A stretch of 64,000 nucleotides of DNA from Eledone cirrhosa. Lineage: Eukaryota. This document shows positions 3,601-62,305 of the stretch, in pieces. The position numbers and the translations under genes were made by a program. Location: NCBI GenBank assembly GCA_964016885.1, contig OZ024743.1, positions 216,752,001 through 216,816,000 of the forward strand. Direction: 5' to 3'. The notes below the pieces were generated by a model. The model was not told the DNA's origin. It saw only the letters and a program-made list of their open reading frames with translations, and did not search any database. Position 1 is the stretch's first letter, and every line of letters begins with the position of its first letter.

Positions 3601-3632
3601 ACGACGTTTCGGGCATAAGCCCTTCTTCAGGT
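3601..3632 (-). ncRNA. Minimal Penelope-type hammerhead ribozyme motif
   Basis: Minus strand reads CTGAAGA-A-GGGC-TTAT-GCCC-GAAACGTC: intact core, 4-bp stem II and palindromic ACGT in place of stem III. Stem I is only ~2 bp. Lies in a ~400-bp insert (3511-3906) between (TA)n tracts. Confidence 0.65.
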
Positions 3633-3954
3633 AAGAGTTCAAAAGGTGTGTAGGGGAGTGGTGGAGAGACATATAGCGAAAGGAAACGGTGCGAATGAAA
3701 AATTAACAAATAAAGACAAAAATATAATAAATAATAAATAAAAATAAAGCATGATCAAAATACAAGGAATGAGAACATTTAAAAATAAAGGCATGATCAA
3801 AATAAACTGAAATTAAAAGGGGGGTAAACAGGTGGTGGAAGGGTGTGGGGTGAGTAGAGGTGGAGGCGGGTGGAGTGGGGAGAGGGAGACGGGGTGTCCG
3901 AGCGGGATATATATATATATATATAAAGACATACATATATATAATACATATATA

Positions 3955-4095
3955 TGTATACATATATATACACACACACATACACACACACACACACACA
4001 TATATATATATATATATATATATATATATATATATATATATATATATATATATATATATATATATATATATATATATATATATATATATATATAT
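3955..4095. repeat. (CA)n/(TA)n microsatellite
   Basis: Directly visible dinucleotide tracts, representative of dozens in the window. Confidence 0.95.
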
Positions 4096-4789
4096 GGAGG
4101 GGATTGTTTGAGTGTGTGGAGCGTTTTCTGTAGTTATAAGGGCTTATATCTCTGTATGAGTATATATATTTATATATAAACAAGTAGGCTTGTATAGAAA
4201 TGTGACCAGCAAGACAGCGTCTCGCCTAAAATAACGAAGAGTGTGTGTATTGGTAAATGAATGAATCGGTAGAGAATTAGGTAATGTTAACACATGGAGA
4301 AACGTATATATATATATATAAACACATACACATGTGCACGTATATATAATATGTGAATTTCTGCGTGTGTCTCTGTGTGTGTGTCTCTGTGTGTGTGTGT
4401 GTACGAAAAAAATTGTAGATTTATTTAACGCATAATGGGGACTATTATTGTTCAGACTTATATACTTGTAGTTCTGAGTGCGTGTGTTTGTGTATAAGTT
4501 TGTGTCGATGCGCGTGATGAAAAATTTGCAGCTGCTGGTACAATATATTCTCAGGAATAAAACAGAAAAAGATTCAGACAAGAATATTATATATATATAT
4601 ATATATATATATATATATAATATTCTTGTCTGAATCTTTATATATATATATATATATATATATATATATATATATATATATATTTACATATATATGAGAG
4701 AGAGGTAAATGTACGTTAACGGGTGTGTGTCTGTGTGTGAACCTGGATGGATTGGTAAATACAGACTAAATTCAAAATTCAGAAATGAG

Positions 4790-4990
4790 AATGATAATCT
4801 TTTCTACATTTGGCACAATGTCAACAATTTGAAGGAAAGGAGAAATTTGATTAAATCGACTCCAGCGTATAACTTTTTTATCGACCCTGTAAGGATGAAA
4901 GGTAAAGCTGACCTGGGTGGAATTTGAACTCAGATGGCAATATCTGTAACTATATGTTACAAAGCATGTTGTCGGACACTCTCCCATTAG
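4790..4990 (-). mobile_element. tRNA-derived SINE (Meta-domain-like family), diverged
   Basis: Reverse complement carries the B-box GAGTTCAAATTCC and the core CCTTTCATCCTTACAGGGTCGATAAAA shared with 23030-23425. Confidence 0.7.
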
Positions 4991-5386
4991 AGCATCTCTT
5001 TATCAAACAAAGGTGCTATATAAAAATCACATTGCGTGAGGTACAACAATGTGGAGGGTTATTTTATGTAGAAATGAATATAAAACAAAAACAAACAAAA
5101 TAACAATTATATTAAAGCAAAGAAAATATCCACGAGTTTTACTTTTGGAAAAAGCTATAAAGCCACCGTTCCTCTTGCCACTAAAGCAATTGCCTTCTCC
5201 CAGTTTCCTCCTATATAAAGGTGAATGCTTAGTATAAGCTTATCTATTCTATCCACGCTCGCCACTTTATATCCACCTTTTAACAAATTTGCGTAAGATA
5301 CCACTTCCCCGTCCTCTCACACTTTTCTCTTCGACTGAACCATCCAAAAGTCTATTAGATAATTCCGAAAGAGCAAATGTCTATCA

Positions 5387-5498
5387 TAATCCCGCCGAGG
5401 TTAACTTTGCCTTTTATCCTTACGGGGTCGATAAAATAAAGTACCAGTAATGAACTGGGTATTTGCTGGCCTTGTGCCAAAAGTAGAAACAATTATTA
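5387..5498 (+). mobile_element. 5'-truncated SINE copy
   Basis: AATCCCGCCGAGGTTAACTTTGCC...CTTACGGGGTCGATAAAATAAAGTACCAG...GGCCTTGTGCCAAAAGTAGAAACAATTATT matches the 23030 copy. Confidence 0.8.
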
Positions 5499-59153: not shown

Positions 59154-59246
59154 TTTTCAGCAAACAGGTGGAGTACTTGGCTTTGATAAGTACCAATCAG
59201 TACGAAACAGAGCTCTGTCAACTTTATCTTCCCTGTTTGCTGAAAA
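59154..59246 (+). ncRNA. Type I hammerhead, U3-A8 variant, long stem I
   Basis: TTTTCAGCAAACAGG-T-GGAG-tactt-GGCT-TTGATAA-GTAC-caatca-GTAC-GAAACAG-agct-CTGTC/...CCTGTTTGCTGAAAA; predicted cleavage after 59219. Confidence 0.85.
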
Positions 59247-59477
59247 TTTAAAGTGAGTGAGACTGTCACTACTCTAAAACAATAGCGTAAGGTCTTCGAA
59301 ATGCTTTTAATTAAGCATACAGTGTATTGAAAAATACACTATATATACATTCATATATATATATATCGCTATTTCAGAGCACCAATTCTTATTTTCAATT
59401 TCTGCTTGACCGGCAACCGCTCTGTATAATCAGTTCCTGATTATTACTAGAATCCTATAAGAATCAAACATTCATGA

Positions 59478-59570
59478 TTTTCAGCAAATAGGTGGAGTAC
59501 TTAGCTTTGATAAGTACCAACAAGTACGAAACAGAGCTCTGTCAGCTTTATCTCCCCTGTTTGCTGAAAA
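59478..59570 (+). ncRNA. Type I hammerhead, U3-A8 variant (second unit)
   Basis: AGCT/AGCT proximal stem I, internal loop, GGAG/CTCC and a long distal stem; predicted cleavage after 59543. Confidence 0.85.
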
Positions 59571-59817
59571 TTGAAAGTAAGTGAGACTGTCACTACTCTA
59601 AAACAATAGCGTAAGGTCTTCGAAATGCTTTTGATTAAACATACAGTGTATTGCAAAATACACTATATATACATTCATATATATATATATATATATATAT
59701 ATATATATATATATATATATATATATGTGTGTGTGTGTGTGTGTGTGTGTGTATATGTATATATATATATATATATATATATATATATATATATATATAT
59801 ATATATATATATATATA

Positions 59818-61680
59818 TTAATAAGAGGAATTCCAACTTTGTCTATATATATATATAGGAGTTATATTTAATTTGTTGGAATTCCGACAAACATAAATAT
59901 TTATAACTGATATAGAGCACTCAACATTTACTGGAGTAAATATTCCAAGATAATTATGAATGGAAACTATTTTTATAAAACTATATTTATTTTATTATAT
60001 ATATTTCAACAGCAACCAAGCAAAGCTTGGTGCGCTTTCATCAGATAAAATACAAAATGTGTTTTATAAATAATGACATACCAATGGAGATCACACCTTA
60101 ACGATCCGAAAATCGCTTGATAGTGGAAACTTATTAGGGGTAATTCAAAGTTATGTGTGAATATGAAAACGACCGTTTATTTAAATTACGCTGGGGGAGG
60201 ATGAGAAAGAGAGAGCGAAAAAATTACAGTTATGAGATAAATAGTGAGAAGAGAGAAATTTAGCAGAGGATGAACTCATATAACGTAAATAAGTCTTAAG
60301 TTTATATTAAAGTTACGTATATTTAGTAATTATTTTGTTGTTAGAATTCTAATATAATACAATATAATATTAAGTTTTATAGGTATAAAGAAAAAATAGA
60401 TATATAGAAAAAGTAAATATATATAAAAATATAAGAATATATATTAAAAATAAATTGAGAATGAATAGATATAAGTAGAAAATAGATAGAAAGATATAGA
60501 TAGAAGAATAGATATATGAATAGAAGAATAGATATATGAGTGGATATATGGGTATATTCTGTTATAGATAATTGTTTTAATAAGTTATGAGGGATACTTT
60601 TTTATATCTATATTTAGTGTAAGTAATTGAATTAACTGAGTTAATATTTTAAATTGGGAAGATAGTGAAAATCCCAATTTTATTAATTTATTAGTTAGTA
60701 TGAGACCATTTTGATGAAGATATGAGTTTTGAAAGATATATTTAGCCAGAATTAGTTATTGGTTATAACCCTAATATTTAATATTAAAAAATATTAAAAA
60801 TATAAAAAATCTTTTAAAATATTAAAAATATTAAAAGTTCTGGAAAAAATTCTGGAAAACATTTCTGGAAAAAATTAAAAAAAATTTTTTTTAAGAATCT
60901 CAAAAGATACTAAAAAAAACCCTTTTTAAAAAATACTTAAACTATTTAAAATGTTCAAATTTATTTTAAAATATTTTAAAATATTAAAAAGAAATTTTAA
61001 AAGACAAAGTAATTTTTAAATAAATGAGATATTTTGGAAGTAAAAATAAAAAATGAAATATTTAAGCAGTAAAGAATAAAGATGTAAAAAATATTAAGCA
61101 GTAAAGGATTAAAGATTTAATAAGTAAAAAATATATGTTCATAATTATTTTTAAATTTTAATTTTAACTTTAATTTTAATATTTTTTTATTTTTTATATT
61201 AAAATTACTCATATTATATACATATATGATAATAAATTTTTAAAATTTTAATTTTAACTTTAATTTTAATTTTAATATTGTTACTTATCTTTTACTTATT
61301 AATTTTAATATTTTTACTTATTTTTTACTTATTAAATCTTTATCCTTTACTGTTTAATAGTTTTTACATCTTTATTCTTTACTGCTTAAAACTTTAATTG
61401 TTTATTTTATATTTTTACTTCCAAAAGATCTCATTTATTTAAAAATTATTTTTTTTTTAATTACTTATCTATTAAAAAATTATTCTCTTAAAAAATTTTG
61501 TTTAAAGATTCTCAATAATTTGTTAAATATTTTAAAATATTTTAAAATAAATTTAAACATTTTAAATAGTTTAAGTATATTTTAAAAAGGTTTTTTTGTT
61601 AGTGTCTTTTGAGATTCTTAAAAATATTTTTATAAATTTATTTGTAAATATTTTCCAGAACTTTTAATATTATATTATAC
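59818..61680 (-). mobile_element. AT-rich non-autonomous PLE-like element with internal ~830-bp imperfect palindrome (60830-61670)
   Basis: HHR plus bulged hairpin at the 3' end. AAGAATCTCAAAAGA...TACTTAAACTATTTAAAATG (60893-60952) is inverted at ~61558-61619. Confidence 0.55.
59972..60070 (-). ncRNA. Type I hammerhead ribozyme, canonical core
   Basis: Minus strand reads TATTTTAT-CTGATGA-aagcgc-ACCAAGC-ttt-GCTTGGT-tgctgtt-GAAAT-ATAT-ATA/ATAAAATA, with distal TTTATAAAAC/GTTTTATAAA. Confidence 0.8.
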
Positions 61681-61684
61681 ATAT

Positions 61685-62305
61685 ATGTAGGGCGACGATG
61701 TTGCCAAGCACTGTACGGCGTAATTCGGGCTGTTTGTTTACAAACAAACCGAATATTATAATAAATGTTCGGTAAACCCATACATACGTATATATATGTG
61801 TGCATGTATGTATATATATACATACTATTGTACGTCTGTACACATATATGTGTGTACGCATACATACTTATATTTAGCTCTCAGCCGTACCAAGAGAGAG
61901 AAATGAAATTTCGTTTCATTCTTTTCCATTTATCGTTTTCGGTACGCCCGGCCGACTAACTCACTCGATATACAAATTAGGCTGCTCAGTCGTTAATATG
62001 CATAAAGAAAGTATATACTTTCAAACGTTCAATCATCTGACAGAAAGGTATACGATGCTGACGGTAGCTAATAAGCTTGAAATTAGTACATCGTTCCTAT
62101 GTCAGTGTTGAACAAAAGGGCGACGATGGTTGCTGAGCACTGTACGGCGTAATTCGGGCTGTTTGTTTACAAACAAACCTAACAAAATAATAAATGTTCG
62201 TAAACCCATACGTACGTATATATATGTGTGCATGTATTTATATATATACATACTACTGTACGTCTGAACACATATATGTATGTACGTATACATACTTATA
62301 TATAT
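61685..62305 (+). mobile_element. Diverged relative of the 420-bp retrozyme-like repeat (~1.5 units)
   Basis: TGTTTGTTTACAAACA, CCCGGCCGA and the HHR at 62053-62093 (CGATG-CTGACGG-TAGC-TAATAA-GCTT-GAAATTAGTA/CATCG) match the 18.4-19.4 kb unit. Confidence 0.8.

Follow-up and report, generated by a model that had tools for sequence, protein, structure and literature searches.

Hammerhead motifs at the ends of Hydra-clade Penelope-like elements and in tandem non-coding repeats of the Eledone cirrhosa genome

A stretch of 64,000 nucleotides of the Eledone cirrhosa genome (assembly GCA_964016885.1, contig OZ024743.1, positions 216,752,001 to 216,816,000 of the forward strand), hereafter called the window, was analyzed for its type I hammerhead ribozyme motifs and for the Penelope-like element (PLE) that lies among them. 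An earlier note on this DNA had listed about 16 near-complete hammerheads from many unrelated families, and had read much of the intergenic sequence as short self-cleaving parasites mobilised by (TA)n-targeting PLEs such as this one, with its intact reverse transcriptase (RT). The window is AT-rich and dense in (TA)n runs, and its motifs were searched with a strict type I descriptor, which demanded an exact CUGANGA or UUGANAA core box together with GAAA and UH, a helix I of at least 4 bp, a helix II closed at the core and no longer than 170 nt, and a palindromic or hairpin helix III. This search yielded 12 hits, compared with a mean of 0.27 (maximum 2) when dinucleotides were shuffled locally, 30 times, in blocks of 300 nt, while a relaxed descriptor that tolerates one core mismatch separated poorly at low score (23 matches at score 0, against 19 in shuffled sequence). 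At 15 of the 16 named sites the core is exact (C3-G8 or U3-A8, GAAA and UH, in type I order), the exception being 62053, and 12 of the 16 show the three-helix arrangement, with a helix III that possibly forms only in dimers, and pass the strict descriptor; those at 3601, 33043, 59154 and 62053 fail it. The association with (TA)n held, as (TA)5 or a longer run is no more than 200 nt away at 14 of the 16 named sites, and so did the type I, PLE-type character with frequent 5' inversion in the families examined in depth. The diversity is real but smaller than had been proposed: the 16 sites represent nine families rather than sixteen unrelated ones, and five of them do not belong to short elements at all, being copies of the pseudo-long terminal repeat (pLTR) of one nested PLE insertion of about 16 kb. 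Likewise, short elements occupy roughly 10% of the window, or 36% when the PLE compound is included (approximate spans), so that to call them much of the intergenic DNA was an overstatement.

The intact RT open reading frame (ORF) at 46316-48757 on the forward strand was confirmed, and encodes 813 amino acids. By motif inspection, it combines an RT with a C-terminal GIY-YIG domain, with RWR at amino acid 37, DKT at 115, YRDD at 346, CNCRNKANC at 673, YIG at 707, CRLC at 771 and CNH at 799. RWR has R in place of the K of the Hydra RWK motif, CNCRNKANC fits the CxCX5C linker, and the CCHH endonuclease motif is absent, since inspection found a sole CxxC, at 771, after the YIG core. A Pfam search of the ORF returned no match, and its atlas look-alikes bear HTH_animal/GIY-YIG. 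On these clade-defining motifs the ORF is assigned to the Hydra clade, for which a single ORF, insertion into (TA)n and pLTR hammerheads have been given as the definition, and of which a member from Octopus bimaculoides, Hydra-1_Obim, is listed in the supplement (PMC8557442). The PLE in the window is inserted in (TA)n and carries a pLTR hammerhead; it exceeds the usual length of less than 3 kb, which is a tendency and not a criterion. Judged by sequence identity the family is young, because each of the 150 genome matches to the ORF that were scored, out of 37,017 first-look candidates, shows 100% identity over 228 amino acids.

Self-BLAST places this ORF within a compound of about 16 kb (39558-55900), in which PLE copies of two sister subfamilies are nested in (TA)n in tandem and inverted order. 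The PLE unit measures 6.4 kb, as given by the spacing between the hammerheads at 45828 and 52231, which recurs at about the same length at other loci, and has a long microsatellite-rich 3' region. The hammerhead of the 5' pLTR (45818-45972, forward strand) has a 10-bp helix I, a helix II region of 116 nt and a palindromic helix III; the same form is found in the 3' pLTR (52221-52375, forward), whose tail is short and stops in (TA)n 52 nt further on, and in an inverted copy with a long tail (44728-44882, reverse). The sister subfamily contributes a hammerhead with a long tail at 55547-55700 (forward) and an inverted one with a short tail at 39621-39774 (reverse). The 3' region of the unit includes about 2.5 kb of (TA)/(TG)/(CA) low-complexity sequence (49200-51700 and 52430-54990), common to the subfamilies, and this internal region may seed new (TA)n targets. 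Elsewhere, on contig C6 (49529977-49557278), at least five full-length units of the window's PLE stand in tandem about 6.6 kb apart, and other tandem or inverted pairs are many.

A further observation concerns the long helix II of these motifs. At 45854-45907, donor-like GTATGT/GTAAAT and acceptor-like TACATAG lie about 42-54 nt apart and are conserved across diverged families, which makes a short retained intron or a structural motif possible readings of these letters. A genome search for the precisely spliced pattern gave three matches, all of them inversion junctions, and thus no support for an intron, nor does this refute one, because PLEs retain introns. None of the sequencing runs listed for the PLE stretch is of RNA; the four that were compared with it, all contigs, showed no GT..AG joint. 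In the summed depth of those four, which is not a copy number, the 3' half of the ribozyme and the tail exceed the sequence immediately upstream about 10- to 25-fold.

Two further families in the window also lead back to coding elements. At 59857-60100 on the reverse strand lies the truncated 3' end of a second Hydra PLE family, with pLTR, long tail and a hammerhead at 59988-60052 that passes the strict descriptor. This 59988 family is the commonest intact one in a random sample of the genome, and its longer copies run upstream, with falling coverage, to a different Hydra endonuclease C-terminus about 1.6 kb away. The fold-back stub at 22700-22897, which the earlier note had counted as a relic at 22785, proved to be the 3' half of a full hammerhead: parent copies in the genome carry a complete U3-A8 motif with a 5-bp helix III, about 0.7 kb downstream of the endonuclease of a third Hydra family. 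Its family, the commonest among the stubs, is also a Hydra pLTR. Hydra endonuclease sequence was seen upstream at loci L220 and L223; L264, L270, L274 and L278; and L121 and L113. In two 22785-family parents (L242 and L256) helix III can alternatively take up the 3' strand of helix II in a 6-bp hairpin; this hairpin might serve as an off-switch, and it is the sole fold that would remain in the stubs. The neighboring relic at 22320/22451, a PLE-type fold-back stub at 22278-22665 that has a tail helix, and whose 3' end falls at two fixed sites and 5' start at one, is without a confirmed hammerhead, as no matching 5' core was found up to 420 nt upstream in the nine longest of 41 arms, read by eye. 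Overall, at least three abundant short families (that of the window's PLE and the 59988 and 22785 families) are, by their upstream sequence, 5'-truncated ends of different coding Hydra-clade PLEs and not independent parasites.

A different kind of element is formed by tandem non-coding units, of which the window holds four families. The 420-bp unit (18060-19445, forward; Tandem Repeats Finder) resembles a retrozyme, with minimal hammerheads at 18772-18814 and 19192-19234 and a 5' inversion, and an older copy of the family lies at 61689-62300 (forward), where the hammerhead at 62052-62094 has A9 changed to G and fails the strict descriptor. The 324-bp unit (58875-59668, forward) carries two U3-A8 hammerheads, one with a broken helix I that fails (59179-59223) and one that passes (59503-59547). 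Passing hammerheads are also found in a unit of about 470 bp (37257-37762, forward; hammerhead 37489-37569), which has a GUUC...GAAC tail helix, and in a head-to-tail unit of about 715 bp (11379-12365, forward; U3-A8 hammerhead 11836-11923). Across 30 loci, arrays of the 420-bp family count 1.3 to 7.9 units and have no Hydra ORF upstream, and the 715-bp family mostly has one or two units per locus. The 420-, 324- and 470-bp units are short head-to-tail non-coding repeats that each bear a type I hammerhead, as retrozymes do.

To place the window within the genome, 98 seeded 10-kb stretches (of 100 drawn, two falling beyond a contig end; 979,400 bases) were analyzed with the same strict descriptor, contigs C5-C28 being sampled from their first 15-30 Mb only. 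They gave 68 hits, compared with 3.0 in shuffled sequence, and 61 compared with 0.4 at a score of at least 10. The density is 69 motifs per Mb (bootstrap 45-98), about one per 15 kb, or 60 per Mb when one tandem array with 10 hits is excluded, which extrapolates to about 2x10^5 intact motifs (range about 1.3-2.9x10^5) in the 2,996 Mb of assembly used for scaling. As a check on this scaling, a 24-letter pattern found 10 times in the sample predicts 30,589 copies, and the whole genome holds 33,083. The link to (TA)n is again evident: (TA)5 or longer lies within 200 nt of 56 of the 61 high-scoring random hits, compared with 29% of 2,724 random positions. The 80 hits of window and sample cluster into 26 families, and the 311 unique hits across all loci analyzed into 29; element ends occupy about 8% of the random sample. 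Moreover, Hydra-like RT or endonuclease pieces, with 30-87% identity, occur in 13 of the 98 stretches, and the window's motif density is about 2.7 times the mean, its 12 hits being reached in 5% of resamples (six random 10-kb stretches and a fraction). The earlier idea of a special ecosystem around one RT is not borne out by these numbers, which put the window only modestly above average. At gathering score, no Rfam hammerhead model matched the window or the 15 random stretches (of 98) that were scanned, and an E-value search of the window gave, among the 150 of 430 matches listed, only microsatellite-driven miRNA-type matches and no hammerhead.

Taken together, the feature is real, genome-wide and of a known kind, comprising Hydra PLE ends and non-LTR retrozymes, and it is unusual in scale. 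We consider it likely, with a probability of roughly 0.7, that these PLE ends and small tandem repeats with type I motifs were written into (TA)n by several Hydra-clade RT-endonucleases; the motifs themselves are predicted to self-cleave, mostly as dimers. By analogy with Poseidon in vitro, the GIY-YIG domain would nick (TA)n and the RT would start internally, at either of two sites in the tail that follows the ribozyme. As copies extend upstream past the cleavage site, the templates would be mostly uncleaved (or circular). Many of the short elements and of the hairpins may be run-off products, in which the RT starts in a tail near the 5' end of the RNA and halts at a family-specific start, and two such arms joined head to head would make the hairpins. 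The run-off end would then be the RNA 5' end, probably set by a pLTR promoter, and a promoter within the pLTR is on record for Penelope and Chlamys in the PLE literature. The tandem 324-715-bp units would be non-LTR retrozymes that borrow a PLE enzyme, probably through circular or multimeric RNA.

The starting points proposed here correspond to fixed element ends. Copies of the window's PLE end in (TA)n at two positions, 52 and 190 nt after the motif, and the same duality is seen in the 59988 family (about 44 and 130 nt), the 22785 family (about 13 and 92 nt) and the 420-bp unit (252 and 308 nt from the motif start, with 11 and 17 of 34 ends). On the 5' side, arms of the 22785 family were followed along a natural parent copy; of 70 such arms, 69 end inside loop II in a stretch of 23 nt, and 38 of these in a stretch of 6 nt. 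Exact genome counts are 33,083 for the pattern of the 3' half and 873 for that of the 5' half. The 5' starts of the 22320 family fall in an 8-nt window in 24 of 40 arms, from loci selected by a query that begins about 10 nt downstream, and those of the 59988 family within 37 nt, upstream of the core region, in 17 of 40. The letters at the boundary are TTAGT in the 22785 family and CCAGT in the 22320 family, which look initiator-like. Self-cleavage itself was considered as the origin of the 22785 boundary and rejected, for cleavage would fall about 40 nt downstream in the parents, and 28 of 46 arms start at reference positions 297-306 and none at 342.

A serious rival to run-off is that the stubs arose by ordinary 5' truncation, by RT stalling at a stable structure or from a few short master copies, and we regard it as having a substantial chance of being right, though short of even. 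Loss of the 5' part and inversion are usual among PLE copies, the 22785 boundary comes directly after the 9-bp helix II strand and beside the competing hairpin, and the 59988 boundary is broader, partly through subfamily divergence. Yet the upstream limit of the 22785 family is hard, with a single arm beyond the 23 nt, the centers of the hairpins vary from copy to copy, which argues against a single master, and the boundaries of two families fall on letters that resemble initiators.

Between the short and long 3' end sites lies an element shared among families, a tail helix of the form ACUC...GAGU, which in the window's PLE spans 46031-46113 (forward strand; mean predicted pairing 0.96) and is a candidate RT-recognition element. 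In 12 families and in the 22320 family, ACUC, GCUC or GUUC stands a few bases past the short end and the complementary GAGU, GAGC or GAAC follows 8-71 nt on. The pattern, which was defined after inspecting these families, is carried by half or more of the members in 16 of the 26 families, where shuffles predict 5.3 and upstream controls give 8; it is also found in 36 of 400 random windows, and the predicted pairing ranges from 0.05 to 0.99. The shared helix is thus a lead, a candidate for docking. A bolder version of the proposal, which we hold only tentatively and think rather improbable as a whole, is that this genome has the largest hammerhead load so far counted (about 2x10^5 intact motifs and about 10^5 half stubs), that the stubs preserve a record of how PLEs are copied, that its Hydra RTs dock on the conserved, covarying tail helix (ACUC:GAGU, GCUC:GAGC, GUUC:GAAC) and start at the two sites beside it, mostly on the 5' tail copy, and that the run-off start can fall in loop II, so that the promoter would split the upstream hammerhead and leave the downstream one alone active.

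The tandem units bear on the idea, close to that of the earlier note, that the majority of the short elements are ribozyme parasites, independent and non-autonomous, which the window's PLE mobilises. Four tandem non-coding families do exist, the 420-bp family bears a two-site PLE tail, the 470-bp family and a family with a long conserved region upstream have a tail segment and helix in common, and a 2026 preprint (10.64898/2026.07.22.740005) argues for an origin of retrozymes from pLTRs. On the other hand, 17 of 62 random hits fall in families with an upstream Hydra ORF, compared with about 14 in tandem units (31 were assigned to neither), and the commonest stub family is itself a Hydra pLTR. 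Furthermore, the strict Hydra-type tail helix is found in the 470-bp unit only and is absent from the other three tandem families, and no sequence link between any of the four and the window's RT was found. Upstream Hydra ORFs, sought at 80 loci of three tandem families with a Hydra query that could miss other PLE clades, were found once, as a separate nested element. The Hydra endonuclease upstream of a 470-bp array (L340/L335) was traced to a nested 59988-family element, cut off by (TA)29, and rejected as part of the unit. That most short elements are independent thus seems unlikely, and only the 420-, 324-, 470- and 715-bp units look non-autonomous by their sequence.

The hammerheads could also be passengers that play no current role in amplification and remain intact only through the youth of the copies. 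Hammerhead mutants have been reported to be without effect on insertion in vitro (PMC11167929), Naiads thrive without hammerheads, and the commonest stub family mostly lacks the 5' half. What makes this reading improbable to us, to about the same degree as that of independent parasites, is the conservation of the fold: compensatory changes in core and helices between diverged subfamilies imply selection on the fold in source copies. C3-G8 and U3-A8 are both present within the 324-bp family, and the same switch occurs across the long-helix-II families, with matching changes in helix I. In the 59988 family group, with 41 distinct copies, 90.5% of cells are paired, and both partners have changed in 13 of the 22 pairs; none of 500 shuffles was as high in percent paired or in covariation score, and slid controls reached 36-62% paired, although the copies are related and were picked by descriptor, so that the test leans to structure and its outcome is not a probability. 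Copies of this family picked by their tail have an intact core in 28 of the 34 that keep both halves. In the long-helix-II group, the alignment fold did not recover helix II. That the motifs are chance matches in AT-rich, palindromic DNA is suggested by the weak separation of the relaxed descriptor and by a few low-scoring singletons, but is refuted for the strict set, whose hits far exceed those in shuffled sequence in window and sample alike and recur as repeat families.

Several points weigh against the interpretation that we favor, of PLE ends and retrozymes written by several Hydra-clade enzymes. About half of the random hits belong to families placed with neither a coding PLE nor a tandem unit. 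The excess of 3' halves in the 22785 family may be nearer 15-fold than 38-fold, because the count of 33,083 covers two subfamily variants and that of 873 perhaps one (4 of 10 sampled hits are the variant that matches the parent), the 5' ends of the window's PLE spread from -291 to -9 with no sharp peak (10 arms), and the 5' start point could also be an RT stall or reflect a short master copy. As for the fold, the pair-type measure in the 59988 group was not above shuffles (489 of 500 as high), and the predicted minimum-energy fold of several motifs consists of alternative pairings 1-9 kcal/mol below helices I and II with helix III open. In addition, a single one of nine predicted Xenopus retrozyme dimers is reported to have cleaved in vitro (preprint 10.64898/2026.07.22.740005), and a PLE hammerhead that needed protein to cleave was described as dispensable for insertion (PMC11167929).

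These elements have much in common with published systems. As described by Craig et al. (2021; PMC8557442), Hydra-clade PLEs share with those reported here the RW[K/R], DKT, CxCX5C, CxxC and CxH motifs and the C-terminal GIY-YIG domain, as well as the (TA)n target, the pLTR hammerhead and tandem or inverted copies with a tail. They differ in their length of less than 3 kb (6.4 kb here), in the hairpins of their File S2, far shorter than helix II regions of 101-116 nt, and in tails of 30-40 nt (about 55-140 nt here), and their table gives one octopus family where we find several divergent and abundant ones. The minimal hammerheads of Cervera and de la Pena (2014; PMC4209133) are also of type I, with U3-A8 forms and a palindromic helix III that suggests dimers, and form many families, in which truncated PLEs have mostly left single motifs or pairs on opposite strands; the numbers given there, with other descriptors, are about 2,000 in Schistosoma mansoni, 4,000 in coelacanth and 9,000 in Xenopus tropicalis, set against an estimated 2x10^5 here. 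Metazoan non-LTR retrozymes (Cervera and de la Pena 2020, PMC7229834; Li et al. 2026 preprint) are, like our tandem families, non-coding type I units that co-occur with PLEs; our 420-, 470- and 715-bp units exceed the 170-400 nt of the former source but lie inside the 51-972 bp of the preprint, and differ from the published ones in their two-site PLE tails and (TA)n targeting. Poseidon PAc of Anolis (Frangieh et al. 2024; PMC11167929) belongs to a different clade and has its start sites in the ORF rather than in a non-coding pLTR; it has an AT-rich target, two RT start sites that define a tail and, as its main template, uncleaved RNA, as we infer for the elements described here, and the passages cited from that source describe no cross-family tail helix or fixed stub boundary.

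With respect to scale, very high hammerhead loads are known from the SINE-like (short interspersed element) Sm-alpha family of Schistosoma, which is there the one main family, with about 38,500 BLAST candidates in S. mansoni (PMC2770079). For other genomes, the reported motif counts are more than 6,000 for Acropora (forming 16 families), 126,247 for axolotl and about 5,000 for mussel (PMC7229834), and 235 Rfam hits for the giant squid (PMC6962438). All such comparisons between genomes are rough, as descriptors differ between studies. We take the S. mansoni genome to be about 0.4 Gb, in which case its density per Mb is probably similar to or higher than that found here, and only the absolute count may be a record. 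The repeat annotation of O. vulgaris lists 31 recently active Penelope-like families, and the word ribozyme is absent from the part of that source considered (PMC13282606). In the literature searched, outside the supplements of the two Cervera papers and of the preprint, neither a census of hammerheads in cephalopods nor a tail helix shared across families or a fixed boundary of stubs was found. Beyond scale, the long-helix-II variants stand out, together with two mechanistic leads, the 5' starts of the stubs and the shared tail helix.

That hammerheads accompany PLEs and retrozymes is, in its essentials, already in print; PLE transposition is poorly understood, with one in vitro system found in the literature searched. 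Tens of thousands of natural abortive products, with ends fixed across diverged families, would offer testable sites of RT binding, start and stop, and the young intact ORF offers material for an assay. Forms with a long helix II and U3-A8 were missed by Rfam in the scanned stretches, so hammerhead counts for genomes of this kind are probably large underestimates, and some repeats labelled unknown or MITE-like (miniature inverted-repeat transposable element) may be PLE stubs.

The remaining sites of the window are of less weight. The U3-A8 hammerhead at 21859-21921 (forward strand) is weak, with a score of 6.5, but passes the strict descriptor and has an inverted 3' fragment at 20979-21081. 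The minimal motif at 3601-3632 (reverse) has an exact core, a 4-bp helix II and a CG helix III and fails because its helix I is just 2 bp, while the degenerate U3-A8 motif at 33043-33127 (reverse) has an intact helix I and fails because its helix II is unclosed at the core. At 20593-20961 lies a fold-back stub, on inspection long-helix-II-like, whose direct arm starts inside the core box, and the relics proposed at 20781 and 25473 are plausible as decayed or half motifs by inspection.

Repeats of a SINE-like type, found in the window at 23035-23431, sit at one site in the 5' arm of long-helix-II hammerheads at three loci (L072:6465-6802, forward; L121:6457-6800, reverse; L334:2424-2752, forward). 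At each of these loci the duplicated target has the subfamily variant of the locus itself, which suggests independent insertions guided by microhomology (6 of 19 arms examined). The window also holds other non-LTR remains, namely an APE-RT element at 323-3246, an RT with zf-RVT after an ORF1-like frame at 27601-32136 and an RT with a PHD-like finger at 62477-63544, as well as a run of 200 Ns at about 57850-58050.

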